Origin: Candidatus Omnitrophota bacterium
GTDB taxonomy: Bacteria > Omnitrophota > Omnitrophia > Omnitrophales > Aquincolibacteriaceae
Assembly (NCBI GenBank): GCA_016930235.1
Contig: JAFGHI010000010.1
Location: 250 to 64,249, forward strand
DNA: 64,000 bases
Direction of reading: 5' to 3'
Shown: positions 13,804-64,000 of the stretch, in pieces
How the letters are laid out: each line of letters starts with the position of its first letter
Position numbering within the stretch: the first letter of the stretch is position 1
Program-made: the position numbers and the translations under genes
Notes under the pieces: generated by a model
Told to the model about the DNA's origin: nothing
Database searches by the model: none
The model's input: only the letters and a program-made list of their open reading frames with translations

Positions 13804-14244
13804 TTATGAACGAGGGGAATCCTTCGAAACAAACACACGAATCACATCAAGATCACTAGAATCAATATTCAGAAAGAACACACCCACATGGCAAAAGCCC
13901 TTCTTTTGTTTTCGTTGACGGCTCCAAACAACCTTAGCGAGAATCGGAATTTGCCGGTTTTCCTTAGCTAGATTAAGAGTCAGCTTCAAAATGGTATTCG
14001 GGTAAATGGGCTCTGCGGCTTGAAAGCGAAGACCTGTTTCCGAAAGATCCTGAAGATTGCTTAATCGGTGATTCATGTGCTGGCCATCCGGGATCCATCT
14101 CAGAAGATCATAGCATTGAACTCTCGGCGAAATACGACGTTCTGCCTGAAGAAAACGGCCCAGGTTCGTATTTCGAAGCTCGGGTGGAAATATCTTAAAA
14201 TCCGCCTCTTTTTCCTTTTCGTTAAAATACCGCTTGCGAATCAA
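13804..14244 (-). CDS. PilZ-domain (c-di-GMP binding) protein
   Basis: An RRISPR (RxxxR) motif and a DLSETGLRF (DxSxxG) motif, which are hallmarks of PilZ. Confidence 0.65.
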   Translation of the reverse strand: MIRKRYFNEKEKEADFKIFPPELRNTNLGRFLQAERRISPRVQCYDLLRWIPDGQHMNHRLSNLQDLSETGLRFQAAEPIYPNTILKLTLNLAKENRQIPILAKVVWSRQRKQKKGFCHVGVFFLNIDSSDLDVIRVFVSKDSPRS

Positions 14245-14711
14245 TTTTTCCTCCTATCTCCAGACATAAAAAAACCGACCGCCATTTCGCATTCCTTTGG
14301 CAGCCGGCTGATCTCGTCTGAGATCCCATGGCTTTGCGTCCTACCCTCGCGGACTGAACTCTAAAATAATGCATTCGTTCGAGCTGCTAACTCTTTTATT
14401 AGCAATAGGTTGCCTTGATCAAAGGGCCCTTGTTCGATATGTTAAAAAACGGCCTTTTATAACTCACAACTGCTGATACTAAAAGTTACCCGGTGAATAG
14501 GAAAAATACAAGGGGCACTAAGAAAAATTTTGATGATTCCACTTGAGCCCTTTTGTAGAGCCCAAAGTAGGTGAGCATCTCTTGAAGGCTTCATAGGAGT
14601 AGATTCTTCGAAGCTCCCGAATAGAACATTGTAGAATCGAGCTGCATAACATCGCCAAAACATCGTTGGCCGAGATTCGATCATTTTTGCATAGTTTTCA
14701 CTGCGCAAAAA

Positions 14712-51900: not shown

Positions 51901-53959
51901 AGCGACCGGGGACTTGATCTAGGGTATCAATTTGGACCGGGATCCCCTGCAATCCACTAGGAACAACACCTTCTGATACTAAACGGCGTTCAACACCTAA
52001 GTGAGGCAAAACACCTGCAGGAAGTTTGGAAAGGTTAATGGCATCGCCGGCCGCAAGAACGGGGTAAGTAAAACCATCGGAGGTCGTGGCTGTCTGGAGA
52101 AGATTCAAGATATTTTGTTCGGTGAGGTCGCCTTGGGCGTCCAGATCGCGGATCCCTTGAATGAAACGTTCGATATTCTGAAGCCATTTTTGACGGAGTT
52201 TTTGGATGCTTTCTTCATCCAGGATTTCATCGATAAAGAGGGTATACTTCCCTGCTTGATCTAATCTCTTTTGGCCTGCCAAATCTCGGACAATTTGATC
52301 ACGCCAATGTTTTAAAAGGGTGCCGGGGTCTTCACCGCTTTCCTCAACCAGCTTATCGCGAGTCGAACGGATAAAGGCTTTGTAAATATTGATTCGGTCA
52401 TTCTCGACCCGGAAATACCCTTTCCAAGCCACCTCACCCCGCATATTTTGGCGGTAACTCGTTTCATCAGGAACCGAACTGATTCTTGGCATTACCAGAA
52501 CATAAGAAATTCCCTCTTGGCGGAAACGCTCAGTCAAACCTTCGGTATGAAAACCGCCAGCGATTAGGACACTGGAACTGTGTGAAGAGTAAAGAGTATC
52601 TCGTGAAGAGCTGCTCTGCATCTTTTGAATCAAATTTTGGTAAAAAGCCTGATCACGCGCTTCGGCTGTTTGATAAAAAGCGATGTGATGTTTTAAATCG
52701 TCTTGTCCCAGAGGGATTTCCTCAAATTCTTGACCTTGGATTATAGTTTCGATACGTTTCCAATCCTCATAGCCGATATTCAATTTTGCGAGCCTCGTAA
52801 GGAGATCCAGATGAAGGCCTCTGCGGTTAAGGTCCCGTTCAAGGTCAGTTCGGTAGAATTTCTCCTTCACGGATTCTGTATACGCCTGGAATTCCTTAAA
52901 AAGCCTTGTGCCGCGAAGATCCTTCATCCTCAGCTGATTTTGCATAAGGGGCTTAAGAGTGTTTGACACTTCAAGAGAAATCCCCTTTTCTTCGATGAGC
53001 TCCTTCATGAATAGCGCAAAGGCTTCGGGAGTTATTTGGGATATCTGAAAGGCCTGCCGTTTTTTATGAAAACGTTTAAGGTCCTCACGCCCGCCATTTG
53101 TCGAATCACCTTGATGCAAGAAATCCTCGACTTTTTCGGCAAGGGCCATGACTTCCCGGTCTAAATGAACGCGGTCCACGAATTGATTTTCGTATTCCCC
53201 CAAAATCAAATCGAGCTCGGACCCTTTGGCCAGCTTCTGATAATTTGAAAGTTTCTTCAGAACGGTTATGAAGGTTTCCAAATTTTCACCAAAATCCTGA
53301 AGCAAGCGATCGATCGCGAGAAGTTCTTCGGGATACGTGTTTTGTTTTTCTTCTTGAAGCCCTTTTTCCGCAATTGAAATTCTCCGGAGGAAGTCTTCTT
53401 CTTTCCCTGCCGCCTGAAGAAAATAGGCCAGCCCTTGTTCATAGAGATCCCAATTCTCAATCCCCTCATATTGGCCCTCGACATGGTTAAGAATCGCGGC
53501 AGCCGTACTTCCTGTAAGCTCCCCTTTTTCGTGATAATCATTTAATACCTTTTTTAATAATTCCTGATCCGGAAAACTTCTGAGGATCTGAGGATCCAAT
53601 CGGCTAGCAGCACCTTCTAAAGCGATGAGGTCCACACCGTAAGTCTCTTGAAAATATCCGATAAGCCTTTGAATATTTAGCTGAGCTTCAGGAATAGCGT
53701 GGGCATCTTGAATAAGGACAACGGTCTGATCGTTTTGGCCTTGATACCTTTCAAGAACCTCTCCGATCTTTTCCGGGATTTCGATCTTTGAAATTTCAAA
53801 GGGTATAGATTTCTCTAATTTTTTGTCAGCCAAAGGTAAGAGATTTCCCGAGGCGTATACAGGCAAACTTAGATGGTTCGTCACAAAGAAAGTCATGACG
53901 ACTATTAAAGCCACTGATTTAATGAGTGTAGACCTCTCCTGCATGAAGTCTCCCTTCAT
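39968..53959 (-). CDS. giant (4663 aa) secreted/multi-pass membrane protein with internal duplication, embedded PEP-utilizing phosphotransfer module and ten RSELR motifs
   Basis: A single uninterrupted 13,992-nt ORF. It has an N-terminal signal peptide (…LSLPVYA|SG) and hydrophobic TM clusters near aa 1425-1455, 1521-1600, 1945-2025, 2603-2625 and 2722-2785. Aa 3430-3500 resemble a PEP-utilizer phosphohistidine swivel domain (GGTSLSHWVTFARDLGIVVIP). Aa 3555-3800 resemble the PEP/pyruvate-binding TIM barrel (GVGLFRTEQL ... GSNDLMVSINQVGRDD). The second ATG at 53944 has the better SD (AAGGGAG). Confidence 0.85.
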   Translation of the reverse strand: MKGDFMQERSTLIKSVALIVVMTFFVTNHLSLPVYASGNLLPLADKKLEKSIPFEISKIEIPEKIGEVLERYQGQNDQTVVLIQDAHAIPEAQLNIQRLIGYFQETYGVDLIALEGAASRLDPQILRSFPDQELLKKVLNDYHEKGELTGSTAAAILNHVEGQYEGIENWDLYEQGLAYFLQAAGKEEDFLRRISIAEKGLQEEKQNTYPEELLAIDRLLQDFGENLETFITVLKKLSNYQKLAKGSELDLILGEYENQFVDRVHLDREVMALAEKVEDFLHQGDSTNGGREDLKRFHKKRQAFQISQITPEAFALFMKELIEEKGISLEVSNTLKPLMQNQLRMKDLRGTRLFKEFQAYTESVKEKFYRTDLERDLNRRGLHLDLLTRLAKLNIGYEDWKRIETIIQGQEFEEIPLGQDDLKHHIAFYQTAEARDQAFYQNLIQKMQSSSSRDTLYSSHSSSVLIAGGFHTEGLTERFRQEGISYVLVMPRISSVPDETSYRQNMRGEVAWKGYFRVENDRINIYKAFIRSTRDKLVEESGEDPGTLLKHWRDQIVRDLAGQKRLDQAGKYTLFIDEILDEESIQKLRQKWLQNIERFIQGIRDLDAQGDLTEQNILNLLQTATTSDGFTYPVLAAGDAINLSKLPAGVLPHLGVERRLVSEGVVPSGLQGIPVQIDTLDQVPGRSELRSMTSQQMARHLARALSSSRLALDATMSFSRQNLSDPLILQMLQGMFEPHLTRVLDALSVFDQLLGEPPVPVHESEIPLIEGFEGLIMCLETLSRGSRMPLGATSAALKAKMEIIGSYAAKLRSRVLSLRILQFQKQGFMSVDKGASAIDLSQTESRRAFVVNGLETMKIIGEELTLADKAIGEKIIMDEEARQYQKELTETRLHGVIQSIVLVMNLLWDGIQGDVVDAGALYWFLRRLSGKISQFNLALSDLTKMSFYQREPAFEEKIAILDNVRGVLDLWLEQIKAVANIGDDKPIEKSVIQEAVTRLPSKQAIQEMDMPDLLFAIYRMVQLSELMMPYLDSKDPAEVKQLEQTLRNLMVEARMRESVLVSGRSELRQSLINDYFLALINADVAIDRLQRVLEQELTEGAAIAERIDQLNGALLPDVLVQLRVLGTHLEGDVRDDDVRELTSLQRLQINLVQVTNILGGSIYAMNPNVDAAVIEIQSIEERLQGRIQAAMELSRNEIEEQTESLIFGFNPEMWVQDTLERIAEWETWPDAKLYERRISIKRAGKTLQWLDILPKALDAIHRLNPLQARVLIYEGKLRRGEVEAVSADTRSELRAEIQDLLANAKNKGIDVKARQDALRELTGRGLALSQSGMDALQVMNDLRDLVGDGTAMPLIRVSAANTLLMLMNYSLASDNEALRAQALDYSWSVEVLGKLSGAMDLMEAIFTDEAITPEVVVQWGELWGDFMVGAVLMAKIFKGSAFMYQQEMFLILVSDKVGKVHVPAYNAAKRLGVFDQFQAFAYAGVIREKVDAIFGPLQRSELRAEKAIAKKESWDIRLTKYLASLVFDLSVLFGVPVLGIPAIYDLGVSPAAVFFLLAGFAYFLYFTGRKLKLGERFSNIMVGLLSFVLTFGVVSFLHMKDVRDVQARQEVGISRTTTPEAPRPPPEIAPASIEKAAPVAPIRDIPEPNVIEAVKRVLQGEQSSIGKAALTDEQIDEYLRLIIDKNAKNFETRLIPLVKIVDAIVALIDSDKSPEYRENVRKLLTRTVVVESDQLRADEQYRGGPGAGVANVEVNIGDGSGTAEYLLTRILQRADWKAIVQRVFYDVDETTIRRFASSKDKSSRELREYLRTHPAASIFLARVKYRLFRSPIPFGENEQILYWAIYYNGSPKAKRAAKVDNFGAIIKAARAKVAGKSYPLSVTQPIEIDGIAVLPRDLEEFEVWRLVRQEIEKTSSLETSERSELRADQFRMLKRIIDWENVRHFLVSSLMTVLSLTMASAMIVRFGHHLGVPLLAVFVLAAGSGILLLGTNWFYRSGKRVFDIFTGYMLAVLAFGFVLVIDRQISRVAAGTVKEPSSIIIAPLDQAPLEAGAPADVTVVPQTPAVTKPFEIPLEVSPQEEQPLEEHVTALTPMDQNLRLQIDKNALDFETRLIPLVQIVDAVLALTDSEESPEYRENIQKLLTRTLVVESDQLQTDEFYGGEPGSAEYLLSRVLGREDWTAMAMPIFYDVDEVTLRWFASGQEASSRDFQEYLKVHPAAAVFLARIKYLLIPVPLPKGNNDQILYWANYYNSSPQAQSAARSDHFMGYIRAVRNVVANNTYLLKAAEPLVFDGGRRIIFTSELDEFTVWNLVARQIQKTKVPAVAGKSLGRSELRKPARAEPAITSDAAWIHEGRAHDYSEWMRVSEYEFLDAIRSKVNRKNEEKFAWYFNSGFDVIRALFTTNATQLIMSDQATFGEKVSEEGEEYQPLLRERVHASRVDEGGVHGILTMSFLGINIRTLFLMSLEELGVRDYTINRLELGRDRWTISFVWRHPEEGREKLRTVYFLGGEQIEELSSLPMELQKAIAENGGLDLTLEKAPNYYYEDIKRSPAPGEEFQGRREIYQVNSIKRDLLKRGGFAIGDIEKVREYPSSNNLLTSALADFALVSSLALWWKGIFFTWGNGGLEIAQRKSGEPMLRWAGDDAAGVNLRSEFRDEDLTGLRGEFAGWLDQKINNPVYRDLWLRLSNDAEITEILEDEDLNIQERIQEVVDVLDEDMLYNSIFAAGFRWFLVGSMTAMAGIVFLIRVAISWDEGNIPFALSCSVLTLMAAIAVTLSYQVIRSWRWRIELLIHHLQQFAIHQRYVDVPSVPVQAESKSQRSELRTGPNNLILRGSSPAMNVIASGEIVTWEREAKRVNFSLVRPFDTPREAAQKVENEVHALTNIWRRVLDESERQMSLGEQMQEVLGLLLEEAIYRVRHQESRSDEVLRQMLDEMKRELAEQTAPAPTTVYAMGFIQGSVIPALVNREDFIHLPDEDHNKKVREVLIQTAKDRLMTKVFDLFLNLPFGLNTDDSKLADGQKEASYTRRRMFADNTVYGMTIDEHGRPKTIKMDVFERLAYHLDKGKTPQKALQIIIDLLNAHIANFRNLPSGELFKRMIQVNEELRGYVESIQEDLDTYDYIFEMSDLEEEVQVKKEEEVRRHEEVMVDVLDQFLDAITASYEAEIQKRISAMVKKKEDEASIAAVDRTLHEEAHTNIEKWKAWVKRFDFQVRQDILKTGRSIEYLTALFYMRHFMDLRAQQTFENEAGVLERFWEGHKKIVLEMPLEGEVPAEMEFLPPGVVTQIRQWVGEEQQHAVEEILRMIFDEISRRVRENRQHAAEVFQNVLDEIRSGQWERIQPDDPFQAGIISYFQETMIPMFNAYADNRGGEGRRVNDVEPEALEFLMRYYDRARFGPTQQVDRDLVVFAKTIENERDLYHLLSSLRGHGRVVAIVSPGGTSLSHWVTFARDLGIVVIPAADFEAAGLEFSKETLQGWAMADGREGFVVLRPDYQTRDTWFARRESYADLDAFFLARADEPVFFAGREILFYVDDTKPEDFQRRAELRSIVERHGGKGVGLFRTEQLAAHPGWQGIENDRVRFAQTIQGILMQPFFQVRRPFIVRIFDVQMDKRPKILTEGRKPDEVRRILEIPLEEGRNRLGVRFYLDKEGTHPHYGDLFKQFREFGKMQLMVFFQAQVAAYNRLEELAREGKGPQPEVNLHILIPDIIDQRDINGILELIEEAKTEYLSGIVEEEQEKARQIINQILIGFMFEKENAMISPDADFYAVGSNDLMVSINQVGRDDPKAQKKLRQLHPNLVGKIAEVAASMNSKGKWVTVDGVWGGSRRLLLALLALRLIRPEIEVYQVAETNQVPEMLEFVRNTTPEEIESQIKPLVERILAGGEQMPSVDEFDQAVSRLQNTIQDRILQGNVFQRFKIARRQRPRSELREISDISSQVQAKSISPDAVQPVPEVERVPAEQPQRQQPYQQQPGLSETSQVSEVGGTVDISIGSRLRDSLNSFLGLTGTEKTVVLTGESDLSQYQNPQWKESQDIVFSILTKGTVVETNETDVAWLVLNPGGRFISIQEEPFTVSDLQAFKALKWSDVQRGTLLDDNRQYHYLVATKSFRGPGIPQTEEVRSELRQEMPIREVFDILYEKGLLRQNERFVVMGEKAASTFAEEYKRTAKPPAPRVMTLDALDQDIAGYPEKGIADFNEGGWNEASYREQFLRLFELVKSRPDMQQGVSVYLPLPERPQMSEGYRVSNPLWDAFEIFTEVLVGIAADSGVQIEYHLRNPLLPGIGKIEIMLPLASWQQIRLQKQGQSLLQAKPKPEPALKKLAVMKKPEGWDGTWTPEELYGTPMEPRSELRLTWVDSALTIARSLIPAEALAADFVLPDQSEVLSAVRPIVAHQIDGAELEQVLKRAVEIAVEELLSRQGFGTAFEDRPEVYSMTSKIAERAVRDLVTFMQQVADTYQGKVTLGLDIPELKDGISRLDRESAIGQYGDIIRSYFLRGELDRFAILGDKKAANALIQVLKSIPIPFTAASSPRQVTILNSGQNVLPVMEFSDEILMEQTAQVLPVGIRLTSEAKLESQVLGRMTQTAFAFASALMARTSTDAKNVQAELLKAVYLFRQMGEGPENQIIVFDSEGRPIVNVSAIDRLLRQEVQAALQIQKAA
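46952..48181 (-). repeat. giant-gene internal duplicated unit, copy 2 (aa ~1927-2336)
   Basis: Has the same TM cluster (HHLGVPLLAV / FGVPVLGIP; FYRSGKRVFDIF / FTGRKLKLGERF), Pro-rich linker and soluble module (NALDFETRLIPLVQIVDA...ILYWANYYNSSP...). It also ends in RSELR. Confidence 0.8.
48182..49450 (-). repeat. giant-gene internal duplicated unit, copy 1 (aa ~1504-1926)
   Basis: The unit is a TM cluster, a Pro-rich linker and a ~240-aa soluble module (NAKNFETRLIPLVKIVDA...ILYWAIYYNGSP...) ending in RSELR. It is paralogous to copy 2 at both protein and DNA level (e.g. ccaataaagaatttg at 48431 and 47221). Confidence 0.8.
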
Positions 53960-54232: not shown

Positions 54233-54880
54233 TTAAAATCCCTGTTCGATCAGCTTGGAGAGCTTCAATTGGGTGCTTTTACGCGGCTTCAATTCGTCCG
54301 ATAAGATCTTGAGATACCTCGTAATGAGGTCAATTTCCAGATTCACAGGGTCCTTCACCTTTTTCCTGCCTAAGGTTGTCTCTTTCAAGGTATGAGGAAT
54401 AATCGCAATCTTGAACCGGTTACCTTGGACGCCCTGAATTGTCAAACTGATCCCGTCAACCGCGATGGACCCTTTATGGGCCAGTAATTTCGTGACTGCC
54501 TTGTCGGCTTGAAACCAAAAGATCCAGTTCTTCCCTCGTCGTTCAATCTTCGTAATGATCCCACGGCCATCGACATGTCCTGTCACAAAATGACCTCCGA
54601 GAGGATCTCCTGCTCGAAGCGATCTTTCGAGATTGAGGAAGCTGCCGATACGGAGTCCTCCTAATGTTGTTGCCGCCAAGGTTTCTTTAACAACATCCAC
54701 CTCGAAATATTTCGAAGTCGCTTTGACAGCCGTCAGACAAACACCTTCGCAAGCAATACTTTCACCGATCTCTAACCGCCTTTTCGCTTTCCTCTGAAAT
54801 CCGATCCGAAAACGGACAATGCCGCCCGTTTCGGTTTTCTTTAAGACCTTCCCTTGATTTTGGATAATACCTGTAAACAT
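54233..54880 (-). CDS. ribE: riboflavin synthase (alpha subunit)
   Basis: 215 aa with the duplicated lumazine-binding repeats MFTGII ... GHVDG. Confidence 0.88.
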   Translation of the reverse strand: MFTGIIQNQGKVLKKTETGGIVRFRIGFQRKAKRRLEIGESIACEGVCLTAVKATSKYFEVDVVKETLAATTLGGLRIGSFLNLERSLRAGDPLGGHFVTGHVDGRGIITKIERRGKNWIFWFQADKAVTKLLAHKGSIAVDGISLTIQGVQGNRFKIAIIPHTLKETTLGRKKVKDPVNLEIDLITRYLKILSDELKPRKSTQLKLSKLIEQGF

Positions 54881-54896
54881 GTAAAGCTCCTCTCTT

Positions 54897-56045
54897 CTAT
54901 CGAATATTCTTTAATGATGCCTTGATTTTTCCTACAAAATGCCAATCCTCACCTAGCTTTTCAACATGATCGATCTCGCATTCAATTCCATCATCCGGAA
55001 GTCTGAATCCTTCTCCCTCGACGGACGTTTTTGCACTGCGCCCTCCGATCAATTTTGGCGCGATAAGCCAGTGAATTTTATCGACATGTCCCCCTTCCAA
55101 AAGCGACCAGGCCAGTTCCCCGCCCCCTTCACAAAGCAACTTGGCAACCCCTAAAGACGCCAACTTCTTCAACAAATCATCGAGATCTAATTTCCCGTCT
55201 TTGTCATGGACAGGAAGAAGAACCTTTCCTTGCTTCGATTTTTCATGAGAACGTCTCTGCACCAATGTCTTCTCACTGACAGCGAGCAAGGTTAATTGCT
55301 CGCCCTTAAAAATATTCGCCTTTGGCGAAACCTCGAGATTCGGATCGATCACAACGCGCCAGGGTTTGCCTTCGATCTGATTCCTCACCTTGATCCGGGG
55401 ACTCAGGTTCGGATTGTCCTTAAGCAAGGTATTCTTCCCGATCAGGATTGCGTCTTGTTCAGCCCTGAGTTCGTGAACAAAACGCCTGGCCGGCACCGAA
55501 GTTATCCATCGTGAGGCCCCTGTCTTTGTCGCAATCTTCCCGTCCAAGGATTGGGCCATTTTGAGAACCACAAAAGGTTTCCGACTGCGGATAAATTTAA
55601 AAAACGACTCATTCTGTTTTTCGACCCGCCCCGCCAAAACACCTGTCTTGACTTTCACGCCGGCTTTTCTTAACGCCTTCACTCCTTTGCCGTGATGTTT
55701 GGGGTTCGGATCCAAGGCCCCGATCACTACCTTTTGGATACCGGCATTCAAAATAGCCGCAACGCACGGAGGCGTTTTCCCCCAGGTCGAACAGGGCTCT
55801 AACGTCACGCATAAAGTCGCCCCTTTGGCTTTTGAACCTGCACGTTTTAAGGCCGCGACTTCGGCATGATCACCGCCAAAAAACCGGTGATAGCCCTCTG
55901 CGACAATCCTGTTCTTTTTCACTACGCAAGCCCCAACCATCGGATTGGGGCTGACCGTCTTTCTCCCCTTTTCGGCAAGATGTAGAGCTCTTAGCATCCA
56001 CTTTTCGTCCGTTGAAAGATAGCCGGTTTCAGACAGGAGATGCAT
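54897..56045 (-). CDS. ribD: bifunctional diaminohydroxyphosphoribosylaminopyrimidine deaminase / 5-amino-6-(5-phosphoribosylamino)uracil reductase
   Basis: A CMP/dCMP deaminase motif (HAEVAAL ... PCSTWGKTPPC) is followed by a RibD_C reductase domain. The start is likely MHLLSETGYLSTDEKWMLRAL. Confidence 0.88.
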   Translation of the reverse strand: MHLLSETGYLSTDEKWMLRALHLAEKGRKTVSPNPMVGACVVKKNRIVAEGYHRFFGGDHAEVAALKRAGSKAKGATLCVTLEPCSTWGKTPPCVAAILNAGIQKVVIGALDPNPKHHGKGVKALRKAGVKVKTGVLAGRVEKQNESFFKFIRSRKPFVVLKMAQSLDGKIATKTGASRWITSVPARRFVHELRAEQDAILIGKNTLLKDNPNLSPRIKVRNQIEGKPWRVVIDPNLEVSPKANIFKGEQLTLLAVSEKTLVQRRSHEKSKQGKVLLPVHDKDGKLDLDDLLKKLASLGVAKLLCEGGGELAWSLLEGGHVDKIHWLIAPKLIGGRSAKTSVEGEGFRLPDDGIECEIDHVEKLGEDWHFVGKIKASLKNIR

Positions 56046-56481
56046 CCGATTCATTTGTTGAAACCTGATAGCGGGGTTTTTCAGAATGGTTGATCTTATC
56101 GAGGATGCCGTTGACAAATTTCCCGGAATCTTCCTGGGAAAATTTCTTGGCCATATTCACCGCTTCGTTGATGGAAACTTTCTGAGGAACATCTTCCAAA
56201 TAAAGGAGTTCATAAGTCGCAGCACGCATGATGTTTTTATCAACCACCGCCATTCTCCCAAGTTCCCAATTCTCGGCCGCGTTCGAGATGACCTTGTCAA
56301 TCTCCTGCTGATTCTGGAGGGTGCCTTTCACTAAAACTTCTGCAAATTCCTGAACTTCCTTGGCAGGCTGACCCTGATGGCTCCAGAAATTTTCTATGAT
56401 CTCGGAGAGCTTCCCAGGATTCATTTCAACCTGATACAGAATCTGAAGCGCATATTCGCGCGCAAGCGTCCGTTTTCTCAT
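56029..56481 (-). CDS. nusB: transcription antitermination factor NusB
   Basis: A 150-aa NusB fold (REYALQILYQVEMN...). Confidence 0.85.
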   Translation of the reverse strand: MRKRTLAREYALQILYQVEMNPGKLSEIIENFWSHQGQPAKEVQEFAEVLVKGTLQNQQEIDKVISNAAENWELGRMAVVDKNIMRAATYELLYLEDVPQKVSINEAVNMAKKFSQEDSGKFVNGILDKINHSEKPRYQVSTNESDASPV

Positions 56482-56987
56482 CTTTTGTTTTTCACCCGGC
56501 GTTGCCGGCCCTTCACACGCGTGTTCTGATCCATCTGCCGGTTTAAATCAGCAATCTCAATGGCTGCCAAGGCCGCATGAGCCCCTTTGTTCCCGGCCTT
56601 AAGTCCCGCCCGGTCGATGGCCTGCTCAAGCGTGTCTGCGGTAATCACAGCCGTTGCAATCGGTATACCGGTTTCCAACGCCACCTGCGATATCCCGCGT
56701 GTGACTTCGTTGCATACACATTCATAATGATAAGTCCCGCCTCTTAAAACACAACCCAATGCAATGATGCCGTCCAATTTCCTAGCCGCCAGCTTCTTAC
56801 AAAAGTACGGAATTTCTAAAGCCCCCGGCACCCAAGCAACTTCAATATCTTTTTGAGAAACCCCGGCCTGTTCTAAAACCTCCACGGCACTTTCAAGCAA
56901 GCGCTTTGTAATGAATTCATTAAACCTGGCAACGACAATAGCAAAACGCTTTCCGTCTCCTTTTAAGTTCCCGCGGCGTATGATCAT
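56478..56987 (-). CDS. ribH: 6,7-dimethyl-8-ribityllumazine synthase
   Basis: RFAIVVARFNEFIT is the lumazine synthase signature. The start is MIIRRGNL at 56987, adjacent to the ribBA stop. Confidence 0.88.
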   Translation of the reverse strand: MIIRRGNLKGDGKRFAIVVARFNEFITKRLLESAVEVLEQAGVSQKDIEVAWVPGALEIPYFCKKLAARKLDGIIALGCVLRGGTYHYECVCNEVTRGISQVALETGIPIATAVITADTLEQAIDRAGLKAGNKGAHAALAAIEIADLNRQMDQNTRVKGRQRRVKNKR

Positions 56988-56988
56988 C

Positions 56989-58200
56989 TCAAAGATTAAG
57001 CAGGTGTCCCAGCTTCTCCTTTTTTGCTTTGAGGTATTTGGCATTGTGGGCATACCGGGGTGTTTCAATCGCCACCCGCTCCACAACCTTCAATCCATGT
57101 CCTTCCAAACCAACGATTTTCCGGGGGTTATTGGTAATCAAACGCAGTTTTGTCAAACCAAGGTCTCTTAAGATTTGTGCCCCGATACCATATTTCCGTA
57201 AATCCGGTTTGAATCCCAAATGTTCATTAGCTTCTACAGTATCCATTCCCTTATCCTGCAAAGCATAGGCCTTGAGTTTATTCGCAAGCCCAATCCCACG
57301 GCCTTCCTGACGCATATAGAGAATGATCCCGGACCCTTCTTCTTCAATCTTCTCCATCGAAGCAATCAGCTGATCCTGGCAATCACAGCGAAGAGAACCC
57401 AAGATATCGCCCGTAAAGCATTCCGAATGAACCCGAACAAGTGTCGCACCTCCAGAGGGAACCTCCCCCTTAATCAAAGCAACATGCTCTGTCCCATCGA
57501 CAAGGGACCGGTACAGCTTGATTTTCCATTCCCCGAAAACGGTGGGTAGGTGGGATTCACTGATCATCGCAACGACTTGGTCGAATTGACGGCGGTACTT
57601 AATGAGATCGCGAATGGTTCCGATCTTCAATTGATGTTCCTTCGCAAAACGGATAATTTCAGGAAGCCTGGCCATCGTCCCGTCATCATTGACGATTTCA
57701 CAAATGACACCGACGGGTTCTAATCCCGCAAGGCGTGCTAAATCACAAGCCGCTTCGGTGTGTCCGGCCCGGGCTAAGACGCCGCCTTTTTTTGCTTTGA
57801 GAGGAAAAATATGCCCTGGAGCCACCAAATCGGAGGCCCCTGCCTTGGGATCCGCCAAAACTTCAATGGTCCTGGCCCGATCATAAGCCGAAATCCCTGT
57901 GGTGGTCCCGAGTCTTGCATCCACAGAAATCGTAAAGGCCGTTCCCATCGGGTCCCGTGAAGGAAGAATCATTTCCTTAAGTCCAAGGGCTTCGCTTCTT
58001 TCTTCGGTTAAGGGAGCGCAAATCAATCCGCGTCCGTATTTCATCATGAAATTAATCTTCTCCGGCGTAACCATGGAAGCCGCCAGAATAAGATCGCCCT
58101 CATTTTCCCGAGCTTCATCATCGGTCATAATCACAAGACGACCCTGACCGATTTCCTTGATAATTTCTTCAATAGAACTTACGACTGTCTTCTGATCCAT
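56989..58200 (-). CDS. ribBA: bifunctional 3,4-dihydroxy-2-butanone-4-phosphate synthase / GTP cyclohydrolase II
   Basis: The DHBP synthase half is followed by GTP cyclohydrolase II ([11 protein letters not shown] ... C-x2-C). The start MDQKTVV is at 58200 with an AGGAG SD 5 nt upstream. Confidence 0.88.
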
Positions 58201-58210
58201 AACCGCTCCT

Positions 58211-58249
58211 AAAAATAAAAATCCCGAAAATAGAAAATCTATCTTCGGG
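58211..58249 (-). terminator. intrinsic terminator hairpin of the FMN riboswitch expression platform
   Basis: On the minus strand, CCCGAAGATAGATTTTCTATTTTCGGG is followed by ATTTTTATTTTT immediately upstream of the ribBA SD. Confidence 0.65.
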
Positions 58250-58428
58250 TTGATGGATACACGACGCAAATTGTCTTCTTCTCCCGTCCGGACTTTACCG
58301 TCGGCACCTGAATTCCACAGGTTCAGTTTTCCTGAATACTCTCAAGAAAAGTCGCGGGCTTTCACCGCCGGTCTGGATTTGTGCTTTCCTAAATCCTTTA
58401 CGCACTCACCATGCCCCGAAGATTGGCC
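58250..58428 (-). promoter_or_regulatory. FMN riboswitch (RFN element) aptamer
   Basis: On the minus strand, ...TCTTCGGGGCATGGTGAG...GGCGGTGAAAGCCCGCGAC...GGAATTCAGGTGCCGACGGTAAAGTCCGGACGGGAGAAGAAG matches conserved RFN blocks (GGTGAAA.TCCC ; CCGACAGTGAAAGTCTGGATGGGAGAAGGA). Confidence 0.75.
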
Positions 58429-58595
58429 GTATGATATCAGGAACCCTTTTTATTGTCAAACTTTTAAAGGGATTTAATATATCGTATCTTGTTTATATAT
58501 AGTTAGTTACGACATATTTCGTGTCCTGTTTTTTTGACTGTTTTTATTTACGTGTTACTATTTAATTAAGGGCACCTTCGGGTGCTCTTAAGGGA

Positions 58596-58690
58596 TTCTG
58601 ATAAAGGCAAACCCGGAGCAATCCGGGGACGCAAAGCCACAGATCCCGTAGAAGCTCAAGTTTATACGGGATGGCTGGGTTACCAAGTCC
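58596..58690 (+). promoter_or_regulatory. c-di-GMP-I (GEMM) riboswitch aptamer, copy 1
   Basis: AAAGGCAAACC-[CCCGGA GCAA TCCGGG]-GACGCAAAGCC-[ACAGATCCCGTA...TACGGGATGGCTG]-GGTTACC reproduces the Vc2-type blocks GGCAAACC / GGGACGCAAAGCC / GGGUUACC. P2 is capped by a GNRA tetraloop. Confidence 0.8.
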
Positions 58691-58718
58691 TCGCGGATCT
58701 TTTACAGATCGGTAGCGA

Positions 58719-58872
58719 TTCTGAAAAAGGCAAACCCGGAGTAATCCGGGGACGTCCCGTCAAACTGCTCGCGCAGCTTGAGGGACTGCGTCATCCCTTC
58801 GGGGATGATCGTAGCAAAGCCACAGACCCCGTAAAAACTCAAGTTTATGCGGGGTGGCTGGGTTACCAAATC
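58719..58872 (+). promoter_or_regulatory. c-di-GMP-I (GEMM) riboswitch aptamer, copy 2, with ~60-nt insertion
   Basis: The same conserved blocks are present (GGCAAACC, CCCGGA GTAA TCCGGG, CAAAGCC, GGTTACC). A compensatory change in the P3 stem (CCCCGTA/TGCGGGG versus CCCGTA/TACGGG) supports RNA structure. An insertion forming two hairpins (CGCAG...CTGCG ; CATCCC TTCG GGGATG) sits between GGGGACG and CAAAGCC. Downstream, CCTCA...TGAGG can occlude the GAGGGGAGGA SD. Confidence 0.65.
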
Positions 58873-58925
58873 CGCCAGAATTTGGCCGAATCAGAACCTC
58901 AGTCTTGTTGAGGGGAGGATTCGGC

Positions 58926-59501
58926 GTGTCAAAGAAAGTCGCGGCTAAATGGGTACGCGCATTGAGCCTGGTCATAGTCTTCACACTTTTTTTGTCCAGT
59001 AAAGCAACTGCCCAAATGACGGGCCGGGCCCTCTCCTTCCAAGATCTAGCCAGTCAACTCCATTCTCCGGAAGAAATTGCACATTTTATGTGGAAACATT
59101 TCGTCTTCGAAAAAGACCAGCGGCTTTTCGGCGAGGAAGAATACTGGCAATCTCCCGAGGAATTTTTTGAAAACCGGAAAGGCGATTGCGAGGATTTTGC
59201 TCTCTTTGCTCAGGCTATCCTTAAAACCAAGGGAGTCACCTCATTTCTGATGAATATTTACGGTTCACAATTTGCTCATACGGTTCTTGTCTTTAAAGAG
59301 GACGGTAAATACAACGTTGTTGACGGAACAAAGGTCAAAAGATACGAAGCCGAAGGTTTAAGGGAACTCGCCGACAAGATCCATCCGAAGTGGGATAAGA
59401 GTGCTATCGTCAAACCGGCCAAGGAATCGAAACACGGACAGATTCTCGCGCAATTCGCGAAGGAAGCCAAGATCAAACGCTCGATGCGTTCTAGCGCCTA
59501 G
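58926..59501 (+). CDS. secreted transglutaminase-fold cysteine peptidase, BTLCP/LapG-like
   Basis: A GTG start lies 6 nt after the GGAGGA SD. There is a signal peptide (…LSSKATA|Q). The putative Cys-His-Asp triad is GDCEDFA ... FAHTVLV ... VVDGT. Its spacing (~36 and ~15 aa) resembles that of LapG-type bacterial transglutaminase-like cysteine proteinases. Confidence 0.6.
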   Translation: MSKKVAAKWVRALSLVIVFTLFLSSKATAQMTGRALSFQDLASQLHSPEEIAHFMWKHFVFEKDQRLFGEEEYWQSPEEFFENRKGDCEDFALFAQAILKTKGVTSFLMNIYGSQFAHTVLVFKEDGKYNVVDGTKVKRYEAEGLRELADKIHPKWDKSAIVKPAKESKHGQILAQFAKEAKIKRSMRSSA

Positions 59502-60939
59502 GTTGTTTACGCCTCTCGACTAAAGCAGGACCTTTTTCAAGCAACCTTTTTGCGATGACCATACAGGTCTTTACAATAATTGCTAAATCTAAATTGAAGC
59601 TGAGGTGTTCGAGATAATACAGGTCATAGTCCATGTTCTCATGGATGAGGAGCCTTTTCCTGTCATCGCTGATCTGCCATAAACCCGTCATCCCGGGCTT
59701 GACCGTTAATCTTTCCCGTTCAAGCGGGCCGTATTTTTCTACCAGAAAAGGCATCTCAGGACGCGGACCGACGAGACTCATGTCCCCTTGGATCACATTA
59801 ACAAGCTGCGGCAGTTCATCCAGTCCTGATTTTCTCAAAAGACCGGCAAAGGGATTGATGATCTTTGATTTCTTCGAAAGCTCTGGGGAAATTTCATGCT
59901 CTTTGGTCCCCGATTTGAGCGTTCTGAATTTGAACATTGTAAATTTCCTGTGATCCTGCCCTATCCGGACTTGCCTGAAAATGGGCGACTGTTTTGAATC
60001 GATCCGCAAAGAAACCCAAATGGCAAGAAGGATTGGAGATAACAGAAAAAGCAAGGTCGAAGCGATTAAAATATCCAGGACCCTTTTGGTGACCATATAG
60101 GAGCTGCGGACAAAACCTTTGCGGAAACTCACAAGCGGTATGCCTCCGATATTTTGAAGTTCTGCCCGTTCAATATGAAACTGATAGAGCGACGGGATAC
60201 TCCAGCACTCAATCTCAAGTTCACGACAAAGCTGGTAAACCTCAATAATTTCATGTTCTTTTAATCCCCGGTGGGCGATGAAAAGAATGGAAGCTTCACG
60301 CTTTTTTTTGAGCTTCTTCAGCTCTTTCAAGTCTCCGAATACCGGAAGATTATCCGGTTTCTTGACCAATTTGGAAATATCGTCATCGAGAAAGCCCAAA
60401 ACACGAATGCCCAGCTTGGGAGATTGATGGATCCACCGTTCTAATCTCTGGCCGTGATACCCCGCTCCATAAATCAATGCATGCCGGTTGGCAATCCCCT
60501 GACGATTGAACCAGGCAAAAAGATGCCGCATTGCAAAACGTTCAATGCTGATCACCCATAATGAAACAAACATCGAATAAAAGGTCGCCAATCGCGAAAA
60601 CTCGCTTTCACGATAAAAGAAAGAAACCGCAAAAACAAAAAAGTAAATCGACCAAATCCCCTTAAAGATCAGACTTTGTTCTTCGACACCGATAACACCC
60701 ATTTCCGGTTTATAGAGCCCGATCGCTTGAAAGACAATGAGGGCAACCACGGGAAGGGCCCAAACAATCGGCAGGAAATCCGAGAAATACTGCCAATTCC
60801 CATGCCACGGGAAAGTAATCCAAAACCAATAACCGATCACAAGGGAAGCCTGAAAACAGACAAAATCTGCAGCCATCATCAGCAACGTCAGCCCATAAAA
60901 GGTTTTTCCCTCAAAAGCTTTCATTTTACCTTCTTCCAA
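59491..60939 (-). CDS. undecaprenyl-phosphate sugar phosphotransferase (WbaP/polyprenyl glycosylphosphotransferase family)
   Basis: 482 aa with N-terminal TM helices, a central CoA-binding-like domain and a C-terminal bacterial sugar transferase motif (DELPQLVNVIQGDMSLVGPRP). Confidence 0.85.
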   Translation of the reverse strand: MEEGKMKAFEGKTFYGLTLLMMAADFVCFQASLVIGYWFWITFPWHGNWQYFSDFLPIVWALPVVALIVFQAIGLYKPEMGVIGVEEQSLIFKGIWSIYFFVFAVSFFYRESEFSRLATFYSMFVSLWVISIERFAMRHLFAWFNRQGIANRHALIYGAGYHGQRLERWIHQSPKLGIRVLGFLDDDISKLVKKPDNLPVFGDLKELKKLKKKREASILFIAHRGLKEHEIIEVYQLCRELEIECWSIPSLYQFHIERAELQNIGGIPLVSFRKGFVRSSYMVTKRVLDILIASTLLFLLSPILLAIWVSLRIDSKQSPIFRQVRIGQDHRKFTMFKFRTLKSGTKEHEISPELSKKSKIINPFAGLLRKSGLDELPQLVNVIQGDMSLVGPRPEMPFLVEKYGPLERERLTVKPGMTGLWQISDDRKRLLIHENMDYDLYYLEHLSFNLDLAIIVKTCMVIAKRLLEKGPALVERRKQPRR

Positions 60940-61684
60940 TTTTCTCTAAGAATACTTGATAAAAAAAATAGGGATTGCCAAAAACATACCGCTGAAACAA
61001 CCGAACCGGGTCCTGCAAGAGCCGGTAGAGCCACTCCATCTGCATTCGGATCATCCACTCCGGTGCCCTCTTAAGGACACCTGAAGTATAATCAAAAACA
61101 GCGCCCCCCGTCAAAAATATCCGCGCATCCAACTTCTCCCAATATTGATTTAACCATTCTTCTTGAAGAGGCATCCCGAAACCCAGGATCAGGATATCCG
61201 GCTTAAGCCGATTGATCTCCTCAATCACGGCCTCATTTTCTTTCCCTTCCTTCTCAAAATATCCGTCCCGGTATCCCCTGACCTGCAAGTTGGGGATCTT
61301 CTCACGTAAGGCATCCCGGGCCTTTTCAGCAATCCCCGGTTTACCGCCAAGAAAATAGAAACTGTAATTCTTGCCAGCGCACCAATCGGCCAGTTCCCAA
61401 ATCCACCGGGCATAAGTCACCTTGGGCGGCGGCCCATAGCCTTTCCATTTGAGGGCCCAGCGGACACCATCACCATCACAAAAAACCAGCGGTGCCTTCC
61501 TGAACAAATCAGACATCCATGAACGTTGGATCGCCAGATTCATGGCATTCACATTGACATTCAGCACCAAGGCTTTTTCCTGATGATCAATCACTTGGCT
61601 GATATAATTGTGAATCTCCGCCGTCCCGACCTTATGAACCGGGACCCCTAAAATCTCTTGTTTTTCATACGAGTGGGATATCAT
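60926..61684 (-). CDS. WecB/TagA/CpsF-family glycosyltransferase
   Basis: 252 aa showing the family pattern (VNVNAMNLA ... FLGGKPG ... GFGMPLQEEW). Confidence 0.8.
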   Translation of the reverse strand: MISHSYEKQEILGVPVHKVGTAEIHNYISQVIDHQEKALVLNVNVNAMNLAIQRSWMSDLFRKAPLVFCDGDGVRWALKWKGYGPPPKVTYARWIWELADWCAGKNYSFYFLGGKPGIAEKARDALREKIPNLQVRGYRDGYFEKEGKENEAVIEEINRLKPDILILGFGMPLQEEWLNQYWEKLDARIFLTGGAVFDYTSGVLKRAPEWMIRMQMEWLYRLLQDPVRLFQRYVFGNPYFFYQVFLEKIGRR

Positions 61685-61748
61685 GATGCCTGTCCTCGTT
61701 AAATCCTTCTTTTATCTATCGACGTATTGGCTTTAAAGTTATAGCCTT

Positions 61749-62414
61749 TCATGATTGAAAACCATCATAGGCAACAAAAGATTTGACCAAGCCCATGAAT
61801 CTTTCTTCCTTAATGAACGCTCCAGGAAAAAGGGCTTGGATATCCTTTTTACGAAGAAGATGGATGGAATCAATAAGGGCTTCCGCCTTCTTACGGTCCG
61901 TCTCTTTTTTCTGCCATCCGAGGGCAAAACCCTGAACCAATTTTATCCTGCAAATCCTGGGAAGGAATTGGAAGAACGGAAACAAGAAATGCGGTTCGAT
62001 GGGAAAATACCGATTGGGCGTTTGAATATAAAAGCGTTTCCCCACACGCCTGATTTCACGGGCCATCGCGGTTTGATGTTCGATCGACCCCACATGCTCA
62101 AGGACCGAATTAGAAAAAACAATGTCAAATTTCTTATCCTGATATTCGGGCATCGAACGCCCATCCCCCCGACAGGCAACCAAGTTCGAAGCGTCCGTCC
62201 GCACGTCTTCAGGATTCAACAGGGTTATCTGAAAATCCGGATTGTCGAGAAGGCCAAAACTTCGCCAAAAAGTCTCCGTACCTCCGACATCTAAAACCCT
62301 AAGGGGTTTAGGCAACGGTTCAATCAGCTTAAGAAATTCCGCCATTCGTCTTTCTCGAAATTTGAATGAGATCGACTTATGACTGCGATAATCCGCCCAC
62401 GAAGGAAGTGTCAT
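61749..62414 (-). CDS. class I SAM-dependent methyltransferase
   Basis: Carries a VLDVGGTETF SAM motif. The start is ambiguous between 62414 and MAEFLK at 62345. Confidence 0.7.
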   Translation of the reverse strand: MTLPSWADYRSHKSISFKFRERRMAEFLKLIEPLPKPLRVLDVGGTETFWRSFGLLDNPDFQITLLNPEDVRTDASNLVACRGDGRSMPEYQDKKFDIVFSNSVLEHVGSIEHQTAMAREIRRVGKRFYIQTPNRYFPIEPHFLFPFFQFLPRICRIKLVQGFALGWQKKETDRKKAEALIDSIHLLRKKDIQALFPGAFIKEERFMGLVKSFVAYDGFQS

Positions 62415-63723
62415 CTCTTTTTCTTTCCTGTTGCCAGGAAACCCATCTCCTCATCACATTCAGATGAAATGCCTCAAAAAGTCCAACCCACGAAAAGTAA
62501 AGGAAGGCCAAAAGTTGCGGCGCATCCAAATCATCGGTCGCCATCCAAATCGTCATGGCAAACAAGATTGCCCCCAAGCCCCTCCAAAAAAGAAACAAGT
62601 TTCGCTGAGTCACCACATAGTTCTTTAAACCGTACCATCTAACCATTAAGACTGCCTGAAGGATAAGAAATAAGATAAACCCCGCTAGACCTGTCTTATA
62701 AAGAAGCGATAAATAGGTCGAATGGGATCCGATAGGGATAGAAAAAGCAGAGGCATCCCTTTCCTTTAAACCAAACCCGAAAATCCAATCGACCCCCTCG
62801 AATTGTTCAAGGCTGTATTCATATAAAGCCAAACGGTTCGTGGTACTTCCCTCCCGCGCACTTAAAAGCCATGCCAAAGCACCCTCAATCCAAGGCATCG
62901 CCAAAAACAACAGCCCCAGAAAGAGCAGCATCCACAAAATAAAATATCGCCTCTGTAAAAATAACATCATAATGACGCTTGCCATGAAAGCAACGAGACA
63001 AGTTCTGGAAAGACACATAACCAATCCTGCAAAGTTAACGATAAAAAGAAAGAGAAAAACGGGATGACCTAACTTTCTTTCAACCGCCGCCCATGTCATC
63101 AGCGAGAGCAGGATAATCACCATGACACCTCCGGTCGCCGTGGAATACGGTGTCAACGCCATAAAACGGGGCCGTAACCCTTCAGCAAACCAATCCCAAT
63201 GAAGCGGTTTCATGACTAACGAATTCAAGACCAAGGTTTCCTTTCCTAGATAATCTGTCAGTCCATAAAGGGGCGTTTTGATAGCAATTTCCTGATGGAC
63301 GAAGAACGCCGCAAAAGCCGTTGCCAGGACTAAAAAAGACATCAACCACGCGAACCGGTAAAACACCGAAAGCAGCGACCGGATATCCTTTAATTCAAAA
63401 GCATTGGTCAAGACCACCACGAGCATCAAACCCACTCCCCAAAAACTGAGATTATATAGGGAAGCGACAACACGTTTGCCTTCCGCCGTGGGAGCGTGGA
63501 TCAGGATGGAAAAGGCATAGATCAAGAAAAGGCCCAGGAGCAGAAAGAAGGAAGGCATCAAAACAACCCCCTGGTCTTCTGTGTTTGAAACAAAGATTAG
63601 CCGGATGAAAAGATAAAGGGTAACGGCATGAAAGATAAAAAGGTTCAAACCGAGCGCCCACCAGCAAACAGCACCCACCACAGTCCACTTCCAGACACGA
63701 AAAAAATGGTTGGCTTCTGTCAT
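62377..63723 (-). CDS. O-antigen ligase/polymerase family membrane protein (Wzy_C)
   Basis: A 448-aa polytopic protein with a large periplasmic loop. It has the LSRTCLVAF and GSHSTYLSLL motifs characteristic of the O-antigen ligase family. Confidence 0.75.
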   Translation of the reverse strand: MTEANHFFRVWKWTVVGAVCWWALGLNLFIFHAVTLYLFIRLIFVSNTEDQGVVLMPSFFLLLGLFLIYAFSILIHAPTAEGKRVVASLYNLSFWGVGLMLVVVLTNAFELKDIRSLLSVFYRFAWLMSFLVLATAFAAFFVHQEIAIKTPLYGLTDYLGKETLVLNSLVMKPLHWDWFAEGLRPRFMALTPYSTATGGVMVIILLSLMTWAAVERKLGHPVFLFLFIVNFAGLVMCLSRTCLVAFMASVIMMLFLQRRYFILWMLLFLGLLFLAMPWIEGALAWLLSAREGSTTNRLALYEYSLEQFEGVDWIFGFGLKERDASAFSIPIGSHSTYLSLLYKTGLAGFILFLILQAVLMVRWYGLKNYVVTQRNLFLFWRGLGAILFAMTIWMATDDLDAPQLLAFLYFSWVGLFEAFHLNVMRRWVSWQQERKRDDTSFVGGLSQS

Positions 63724-64000
63724 GGTTTAAGCCGGATCACTTCTTCATAAAGCATCTGATACCGTTTTAACATTTCCTGAAAAGAATATTTTTTCTCGTA
63801 ATGGCGAAACGCGCTCTCACCCATTTCCAGGATCTTTTGCTCGTCTTGCAACAATCGGACAAGTCCTTTCCGAAGAGCACCGCTATTTTTGGAAGGTGCG
63901 AGAAGTCCCGTTTCATTCTCAAGAATCATGTCCCGGCTCCCGGGAATGTCGGTAGCCAAAACACATTTATGCGCGGCATAGGCTTCCAGGATTGAAAGCG
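63720..64000 (-). CDS. glycosyltransferase family 1/4, C-terminal fragment (gene continues beyond window end)
   Basis: The C-terminal ...GSRDMILENETGLLAPSKNSGALRKGLVRLL... is typical of a GT4 C-terminus. The reading frame is open up to the window edge. Confidence 0.55.
   Translation of the reverse strand, partial: LSILEAYAAHKCVLATDIPGSRDMILENETGLLAPSKNSGALRKGLVRLLQDEQKILEMGESAFRHYEKKYSFQEMLKRYQMLYEEVIRLKP

Follow-up and report, generated by a model that had tools for sequence, protein, structure and literature searches.

Can a class I cyclic di-GMP (c-di-GMP) aptamer still work when 60 nt have been inserted one base pair from its ligand, or is such a copy dead? The question was raised by a leader in a 64,000-nt stretch of DNA from Candidatus Omnitrophota bacterium (contig JAFGHI010000010.1, positions 250 to 64,249; hereafter the window), where two consecutive class I (GEMM-I) aptamers precede a gene for a secreted LapG-like cysteine peptidase, and the second aptamer carries the insertion. 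With moderate confidence, we read the leader as a class I c-di-GMP riboswitch in which two aptamers share a single translational expression platform; it would control the peptidase gene as an OFF switch, and the insert would be tolerated. The features concerned are listed here by their positions in the window.

58593-58690, + strand: aptamer 1, canonical c-di-GMP-I (GEMM-I), found with Rfam and the family model R1
58691-58714, + strand: linker between the aptamers, read from the sequence
58715-58873, + strand: aptamer 2, GEMM-I with an interrupted P2a, found with R1 (model positions 1-98)
58755-58814, + strand: 60-nt insertion between G45 and C46 (P2a), a clean alignment gap
58866-58885, + strand: anti-P1 hairpin a':b, CCAAAU (58866-58871) with AUUUGG (58880-58885)
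58885-58925, + strand: hairpin c:d, which sequesters the Shine-Dalgarno (SD) sequence, present in all constrained and unconstrained folds
58926-59501, + strand: putatively regulated gene for a 191-amino-acid (aa) secreted transglutaminase-like cysteine peptidase (BTLCP, LapG-like), GTG start

The family model R1 is a covariance model built from 30 insert-free aptamers upstream of homologous genes. It matched aptamer 1 over its full length (92.9 bits, E 2e-28), and Rfam gave 66.3 bits against a gathering score of 59 with its best model, RF03167; a second member of the clan (CL00126) was also over its own threshold and was suppressed by clan competition. The block GGCAAACC was found at 58606-58613 in aptamer 1 and at 58729-58736 in aptamer 2, the GNRA loops at 58618-58621 (GCAA) and 58741-58744 (GUAA), GGGACGCAAAGCC at 58626-58638 of aptamer 1, and GGGTTACC at 58677-58684 and 58860-58867. 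The original prediction, a model's reading of the letters alone, had claimed two consecutive aptamers with the conserved GEMM blocks, and each block was where it had been placed. P1 of aptamer 1 pairs 58593-58600 with 58684-58690, P2a consists of G58607-C58632 and C58608-G58631, P2b pairs 58612-58617 with 58622-58627 under the GCAA cap, and P3 spans 58635-58681. Across P1, P2 and P3 of the 30-aptamer alignment, 88% of the cells were paired and 15 of 25 pairs changed on both sides; the observed covariation score was reached by none of 500 shuffles, and slid controls were 27-49% paired.

RF03167, the GGC variant, was the top-scoring Rfam model for both aptamers. Its higher bit score does not make either of them a GGC variant, since the variant letter is missing: the RF03167 consensus is GACGCGAAGCC, with G instead of A47, and the variant-defining position in aptamers 1 and 2 reads GACGCAAAGCC / GCAAAGCC, that is A47, not GCGAAGCC. 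We take the letters of the variant's name to stand for positions 20/47/92, from the model consensus and general knowledge. An A at position 20 is typical of cyclic AMP-GMP (c-AMP-GMP) sensors (GEMM-Ib), and this position is G in both aptamers (58606, 58729). The ligand-contact equivalents, located from the Rfam alignment and the sequence, are G58606 (G20), A58633 (A47) and C58683 (C92) in aptamer 1; those of aptamer 2 are intact as G58729, A58816 and C58866. Because A47, G20 and C92 are present, both aptamers are canonical c-di-GMP-I by their binding-site letters, and most likely both bind c-di-GMP.

Outside the single 60-nt gap, pairwise alignment showed aptamer 2 to be ~92% identical to aptamer 1, and R1 matched it over its full length (56.9 bits, E 3.4e-16). 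P1 of aptamer 2 pairs 58717-58723 with 58867-58872, and P2a consists of G58730-C58815 and C58731-G58754. The contiguous P2a (G21-C46, C22-G45) beside A47 is therefore absent from this copy, where 60 nt part G58754 from C58815. The 96-nt cores of the two aptamers differ at 8 positions, each of which lies in a loop or leaves pairing intact. J1/2 has one, at a family-variable position, the GNRA loop one, at its second letter, and the apex of P3 two; of the other four, two make up a double compensatory change in P3 (U58644-A58671 in aptamer 1, C-G in aptamer 2, as had been predicted), and two turn a wobble into a Watson-Crick pair or the reverse. These differences alter no conserved unpaired nucleotide and break no core pair, and the outermost P1 pair is the sole pair lost in aptamer 2. 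The pattern is consistent with purifying selection or recent homogenisation of two working copies, not with a dead copy.

The gene behind the leader is read from the GTG at 58926; the stored gene call (P0001) starts at a later ATG. Its product has an N-terminal signal-like segment and the active-site motif GDCEDFA, and it matched the Pfam families Peptidase_C93 (PF06035; 31.9 bits, gathering score 27) and PF04473 (DUF553; 33.9 bits). C91, H121 and D136 are invariant in an alignment of 24 homologues. The family profile matched the LapG structures 4FGO (E 1.5e-10) and 4U65 (E 5.9e-8) in the Cys region only; GDCEDFA aligns to LapG 4FGO, and the His and Asp lie outside the aligned stretch. These matches bear out the secreted LapG-like cysteine peptidase that had been predicted downstream, and 'LapG-like' appears a fair label as far as sequence goes. 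LapG is held inactive at high c-di-GMP.

Relatives of the peptidase formed 25 clusters in a large protein database, all of them metagenomic, and a scan of metagenome and genome collections with the peptidase alignment yielded 160 loci. The closest of these came from Candidatus Omnitrophota metagenome-assembled genomes (MAGs; 44-52% identity), the next from Planctomycetia. R1 aptamers, single or double, were found directly upstream of the peptidase homologue in ~65 of the 160, mostly in Omnitrophota and Planctomycetota with a few alphaproteobacterial BTLCP genes; 15 loci had two full aptamers. The leader is thus conserved upstream of orthologues, the opposite of what would speak against the original prediction. 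GEMM-I was also seen, at R1 scores of 51-70 bits, before distant BTLCP homologues (L120, L121, L123, L124, L125) in records labelled Sphingomonadales, Rhizobium, Alphaproteobacteria and, once, as a 'Kuenenia' MAG, so the riboswitch-peptidase association reaches beyond Omnitrophota and Planctomycetota.

The insertion in aptamer 2 holds GGGGACG (58748-58754) apart from CAAAGCC (58815-58821) at a site one base pair from the ligand-intercalating A47. Because GACG stands on its 5' side and G-CAAAGCC on its 3' side, the insert can be placed in two ways, which differ by one G (58754 or 58814). Hairpin 1 (58755-58785, UCGC loop) is joined by the linker C58786 to hairpin 2 (58787-58813, UUCG loop), after which comes G58814. 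The insert folded at -29.7 kcal/mol (z = -5.4), and none of 200 shuffles folded as well; the two-hairpin insertion of about 60 nt that had been noticed at this junction was therefore found in length, place and form. Neither the rest of the 64-kb window nor 817 kb of related loci contained a further copy of it.

An assembly contig that was stored independently, L002 (run SRR13394437), contains the insert letter for letter. The end of one Logan contig of that run, L001, and the start of L002 overlap by 30 nt, corresponding to window 58725-58754. L001 stops exactly at the insertion junction and the first letter of L002 lies 30 nt ahead of it, which suggested a no-insert allele in the same sample; this was considered and rejected. 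The 30-mer common to the two contigs, AAAAGGCAAACCCGGAGTAATCCGGGGACG, is identical in the leaders of other species (L004, L006, L008, L088, L092), so this branch of the assembly graph probably came from other organisms. A protein-database search for allelic leaders, made with a spurious 109-aa open reading frame (ORF) overlapping the leader, gave no matches.

What carries the case for tolerance is that the site is used repeatedly. Between GACG and GCAAAGCC, an insert was found in 8 aptamers: aptamer 2 of the window and those of L015, L018, L024, L032, L037, L102 and L109. The others are unrelated in sequence to the window's insert, and those of L018 and L024 are near-identical to each other. 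Six of them were tested (all but L024) and folded with z from -3.0 to -5.8; these six and the window's insert have the same form, a hairpin, 0-2 nt and a second hairpin, flush with the flanks. In L015, L018, L024, L032, L037, L102 and L109 the insert-bearing aptamer is the sole aptamer of the leader, and it must therefore be the working one there. The original prediction had allowed that the insertion might disable the aptamer, retune it or add a third input, and the comparative data argue against the first of these. L015 passed the Rfam threshold of RF01051 (35.8 against a gathering score of 35), and L014, L083 and L095 were also over the Rfam threshold; such insert-bearing sequences may well lie unremarked among the Rfam full hits.

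Constrained folding showed the GEMM fold and both insert hairpins to be compatible. In the structural model that we propose, the two flush hairpins in the 3' strand of P2a would make, together with the two P2 halves, a four-way junction. The original coaxial stack can persist in a junction of this kind, with the new arms stacked on each other, so that the pocket could still form; a single hairpin would instead give a three-way junction and a bent helix. The four-way junction that results from two hairpins in one strand would explain why the hairpins are always paired and their boundaries flush. Because the junction falls between the two P2a pairs, G58730-C58815 could still stack on the ligand beside A58816, and the P2a pairs of aptamer 2 would form across the junction. 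The insert, which splits a helix, is most likely an expansion that the aptamer tolerates and not a lesion, possibly with a role in tuning affinity or folding kinetics.

Two-hairpin modules were also found at other places in this leader family. A module of ~40 nt lies inside P2, in the 5' strand, in 13 aptamers, and a J1/2 module stands ahead of GGCAAACC in ~6 leaders. The two P2a pairs are separated by 23 nt in plain aptamers, by 60-66 nt in the 13 P2-module aptamers and in L015, and by more in the aptamers with the other same-site inserts (83 nt in that of the window). In L163, the closest homologous leader (58% aa identity), the aptamer is plain and a two-hairpin module at 131-172 lies inside the SD-sequestering hairpin, where UCCGCC..GGCGGA UCCGC..GCGGA sits between GAAUC and AGAAUCCUC. 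Each of the 24 distinct modules collected, across four sites, folded as two flush hairpins. Several homologous aptamers have a P3 expanded with extra hairpins to 95-111 nt, against ~45 nt in plain ones (L013 1406-1610, L014 2591-2788, L021, L094 424-576, L096 1101-1254, L099, L104, L110), which makes P3 a further expansion site in the family.

Would the module then be an independent element, placeable in any host helix, that adds a second input by docking a protein or RNA or by serving as a decoy for GAUU strands? We consider this rather unlikely. Many modules do share near-constant stems (UCCGCC...GGCGGA, then YCCGCC...GGCGGR), and these occur at four sites, namely J1/2, inside P2, G45^C46 and the SD hairpin of L163; in the 817 kb of related loci the UCCGCC-type pattern was matched in these leaders only. 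Among the 4-mers of the module loops AAUC ranks first (7 of 152 windows, where ~0.6 would be expected, a count that ignores kinship), being found in loops of L003, L010, L013, L014, L087 and L092. AAUC is also the core of the P1 3' strand (a') and of strand c of the SD hairpin, and loops that contain it could therefore base-pair to GAUU in strand a, b or d. The window's own insert, however, has different stems, closed tetraloops (UCGC, UUCG) and no AAUC; loop lengths and sequences vary among the modules, and no partner molecule was identified. Kissing loops between the two inserted hairpins were examined and rejected, since complementarity was clear only in L015 (6 bases), with nothing consistent elsewhere. 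It is also doubtful, in our estimate, that the ~40-60-nt two-hairpin unit is a portable RNA module with a function of its own, such as a protein or RNA second input, a GAUU-strand decoy or a co-transcriptional folding timer, repeatedly dropped into riboswitch helices with a four-way junction formed each time. In that case aptamer 2 would represent a natural class I c-di-GMP aptamer that carries an accessory domain at one base pair's distance from its ligand.

The shared platform of our preferred reading lies behind aptamer 2, where the sequence runs CCAAAUCC-N-GAAUUUGG-CCGAAUCAGAACCUCA-N7-UGAGGGGAGGAUUCGGC-GUG. This layout is kept almost letter for letter in the Omnitrophota-type leaders, and the pairing CCAAAUC...GAUUUGG is present in nearly all of them. 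In aptamer 2, hairpin a':b takes up the 3' strand of P1 together with the C92 equivalent, and it is therefore mutually exclusive with ligand binding. Hairpin c:d has a basal stem of GCCGAAUC (58885-58892) with GAUUCGGC (58918-58925) and an apical stem of CCUCA (58897-58901) with UGAGG (58909-58913); it encloses the SD sequence GAGGGGAGGA (58910-58919), and its end at 58925 abuts the GTG start at 58926. The helix CCTCA(N8)TGAGG, earlier proposed to sequester the SD of the peptidase gene, does so, with a spacer of N7 and as part of this larger hairpin (58885-58925). Over 24 leaders, cognate c:d arms had a mean of -21.9 kcal/mol and non-cognate arms -19.1 kcal/mol, a difference for which none of 5000 permutations was as low; in the same permutation test for P1 covariation, 20 of 5000 were. 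The 3' strand of insert hairpin 1 (UUGAGGGA, 58778-58785) was observed to be a near-duplicate of the SD-proximal UUGAGGGGA (58908-58916), with a shared 7-mer for which the chance is ~0.05; hairpin 1, if opened, could compete for the CCUCA(G) of strand c.

At tandem loci the GAGGAUUCUGA box lies ahead of the first aptamer, and the platform comes after the last one. In the window, aptamer 1 has no separate platform, the one SD hairpin comes after aptamer 2, and no plus-strand terminator-like site was found between the aptamers (58691-58714). With one shared SD hairpin and no terminator in between, the steeper, more digital response that had been ascribed to the tandem arrangement was not established.

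The box 5' of the first aptamer (consensus GAGGAUUCUGA, in the window GGGAUUCUGAU, 58591-58602) offers strand c another partner. It can pair with AUCAGAACCU (58890-58899), and this a:c pairing takes in the conserved 'AGAA' internal loop of c:d, which is unexplained otherwise; a:c duplex energies were -9 to -18 kcal/mol in most leaders. When the transcripts of four single-aptamer leaders (L004, L006, L008, L084) were cut just before d, the minimum free energy structure comprised a:c, a':b, P2 and P3. From these folds we infer that a:c would act as an anti-sequestrator. In the proposed mechanism, the anti-P1 hairpin a':b would capture the 3' strand of the last P1 when ligand is absent, with b displacing a from a'. 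Thus released, a, the 5' strand of the first P1, would then pair with AUCAGAACCUC in the 5' arm of the SD hairpin and hold the ribosome-binding site open during transcription, and the SD would emerge unpaired. With c-di-GMP the P1 helices would be locked, c would pair with d, and translation would be off. At tandem loci a is part of the first aptamer and a' of the last, so that binding of ligand to either one would undermine the open state. Such a mechanism would be a kinetic OFF switch, and we put the likelihood of OFF polarity, with repression by c-di-GMP, slightly above even.

Terminator-type leaders among the homologues point the same way. Their terminator 5' strand GUCCCAUCCC is complementary to the aptamer's GGGUGGGAC (P2 3' strand and junction), and since GUCCCAUCCC pairs with the aptamer's own GGGUGGGAC, the antiterminator needs an unfolded aptamer, which is OFF logic. 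When the region downstream of P1 was folded alone the terminator formed regardless, and the antiterminator formed only with the aptamer included. The antiterminator of L028 reached -24.9 kcal/mol, with 1 of 200 shuffles as low; for L037 the count was 7 of 200, and elsewhere the result was marginal.

A number of results pull away from the reading of a repressing switch with two working aptamers. The antiterminator complementarity was significant in only 2 of 10 terminator-type leaders. An equilibrium switch model was rejected, as SD accessibility differed by at most 0.08 between the free and the P1-forced ensembles and the energies of the states were only a few kcal/mol apart. In the window, the most stable defined state was the one with aptamer 1 folded together with a':b and c:d (-143.3 kcal/mol), and the alternatives were both aptamers folded (-137.1 kcal/mol) and a:c with a':b (-135.9 kcal/mol). 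Comparison of cognate with non-cognate a:c pairs gave no covariation signal (p about 0.33), which would not be detectable because the a segment is nearly invariant, and the clade of L016, L094 and L096 lacks a:c complementarity. For the insert, no orthologue with an identical insert sequence was found in the related loci, and conservation of this particular insert is unsupported. The Rfam search, which the original prediction had named as its check, recovered copy 1 above threshold and copy 2 below it (31.1 bits, E 1.5e-5, local 401-nt search), because the model must skip P2 and the insert.

The sub-threshold score, the lack of any homologue of the insert sequence in anything searched, the position of the insertion one base pair from the intercalating adenine and the loss of the outermost P1 pair would all suit a disabled duplicate, in which the pocket of aptamer 2 is wrecked, aptamer 1 alone senses and the remains serve the expression platform. 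We think this unlikely. All 8 core substitutions spare the structure, one change being double and compensatory, and two-hairpin inserts stand at the same site in 7 other leaders of different lineages, where the aptamer that bears them is the sole, hence the functional, one.

The opposite polarity, an ON switch in which c-di-GMP frees the SD and the peptidase is made at high c-di-GMP, appears improbable to a similar degree. The equilibrium models keep the SD paired with or without P1, so that thermodynamics do not fix the polarity, and a GEMM-like element upstream of a PilZ gene in the same window (described below) looks like an ON switch. On the other hand, the formation of P1 sets free no stretch that complements c or d; strand b resembles d in being G-rich and adjoins c; the only alternative partner of c is the P1 5' strand, which gives an OFF switch; and the terminator-type homologues show OFF logic. 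That the insertion is a miniature mobile DNA element or palindromic operator that landed by chance is very improbable despite its clean boundaries with a one-base G repeat and its palindromic content, given that no second copy was found in the 64-kb window or the 817 kb of related loci, that related UCCGCC modules occur in these leaders only, and that half-site spacing varies from 7 to 11 nt, which speaks against a dimeric operator.

Upstream of the leader, a consensus scan gave the following site for its transcript, as a pattern only.

58534-58561, + strand: promoter-like site (TTGACT, 16 nt, TACTAT, with TG), 9 of 12 matches

Between this site and aptamer 1, a palindromic 5' hairpin, UUAAGGGCACC-UUCG-GGUGCUCUUAA, was seen by eye at 58566-58591 (+ strand); it may be a stem-loop that stabilises the 5' end of the leader transcript. 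Divergent from the GEMM leader is a ribBA-ribH-nusB-ribD-ribE operon (54233-58269, - strand) driven by a flavin mononucleotide (FMN) riboswitch at 58272-58427 (- strand, 87.9 bits), with a strong promoter-like site at 58459-58431 (11 of 12 matches). A single 650-nt intergenic region is thus common to two units under riboswitch control. Directly downstream of the rib operon lies a 4663-aa ORF (39968-53959, - strand), whose sole Pfam match is PEP-utilizers_C (residues 3554-3841) and which is not recognisable from its sequence as an adhesin. On the other side, a convergent exopolysaccharide-type set (59491-63959, - strand) overlaps the last 11 nt of the peptidase gene and encodes a Bac_transf sugar transferase, a WecG/TagA glycosyltransferase, a methyltransferase and a Wzy_C O-antigen-ligase-like protein. 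No gene resembling lapD or lapA came to light in the window, where no systematic search for them was made.

A stand-alone PilZ ORF (13804-14244, - strand; Pfam PilZ, 47.4 bits) had been linked to the leader in the original prediction as part of one c-di-GMP-governed surface programme, and the link is strengthened by a GEMM-I-like element upstream of it (14255-14430, - strand). Rfam gave this element 32.0 bits (E 4e-6), which is below threshold, and R1 gave it 25.4 bits; it has a ~60-nt expansion inside P2. Its terminator, CCGGCUGCCA / UGGCGGUCGG and U7, has the aptamer's own 3' part as its 5' strand, which is why the element looks like an ON switch.

Few aptamers have been studied as closely as those of class I c-di-GMP riboswitches. 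Their pocket is considered rigidly conserved, and a recurrent natural split-helix variant would show how much architectural change it tolerates. The split P2a site would offer crystallographers and riboswitch engineers a natural position for domain grafting, and the occurrence of one module type at four positions of one leader family poses the question of whether it serves as a spacer in the structure, as a kinetic device or as a second sensor. The locus also suggests that RNA control, and not a LapD-type receptor, acts on a LapG-like surface protease in Omnitrophota and Planctomycetota, which are poorly known, mostly uncultured lineages. In the literature, of which our coverage was incomplete, we found no description of GEMM-I in Omnitrophota, of GEMM-I before LapG-like genes, or of two-hairpin or four-way-junction insertions in GEMM-I.

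Compared with the Vc2 type of Vibrio cholerae (RF01051), the aptamers of the window have the same three-helix junction, the GGCAAACC, GGGACGCAAAGCC and GGGUUACC blocks, a GNRA-capped P2 and G20/A47/C92. They differ in that P2a of aptamer 2 is split by a 60-nt module, and relatives have ~40-nt modules in P2, J1/2 or the platform. The LapD-LapG system of Pseudomonas and Legionella involves the same peptidase family (PF06035), and c-di-GMP would govern the protease in both; in the window, control would act on synthesis through RNA and not through sequestration by LapD, and the likeness to LapG is shown around the catalytic Cys only.

Tandem GEMM-I is already known, and what appears to be new here is the helix-splitting two-hairpin module. 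Among tandem riboswitches those of c-di-GMP-I are the most frequent, with 347 doublets and 12 triplets (Sherlock et al. 2022, PMC9481103); one example of class I tandems is the Bc3-5 triplet of Bacillus thuringiensis (PMC4759541). The window shares with these at least two class I aptamers per 5' untranslated region. The survey tabulates tandem c-di-GMP-I under 'multiple expression platforms' (PMC9481103), whereas the window has a single shared platform and a split second aptamer, so that its dual-aptamer, single-platform design stands apart from tandems earlier classed with separate platforms. In joining two like aptamers to one platform it resembles the tandem glycine riboswitch (general knowledge and Table 1 of PMC9481103), from which it differs in ligand and fold, and there was no evidence in the window for tertiary contacts between the aptamers.

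A parallel in logic is the zmpI (PPEP-1) mRNA of Clostridioides difficile, in which c-di-GMP acts through a class I riboswitch to repress an adhesin-releasing protease (PMC6366702). There, as in our reading of the window, a class I riboswitch of OFF polarity governs a secreted protease that would free proteins from the cell surface. ZmpI is a zinc metalloprotease of a Firmicute under a single aptamer, whereas the window has two aptamers before a putative Cys-His-Asp transglutaminase-like enzyme.

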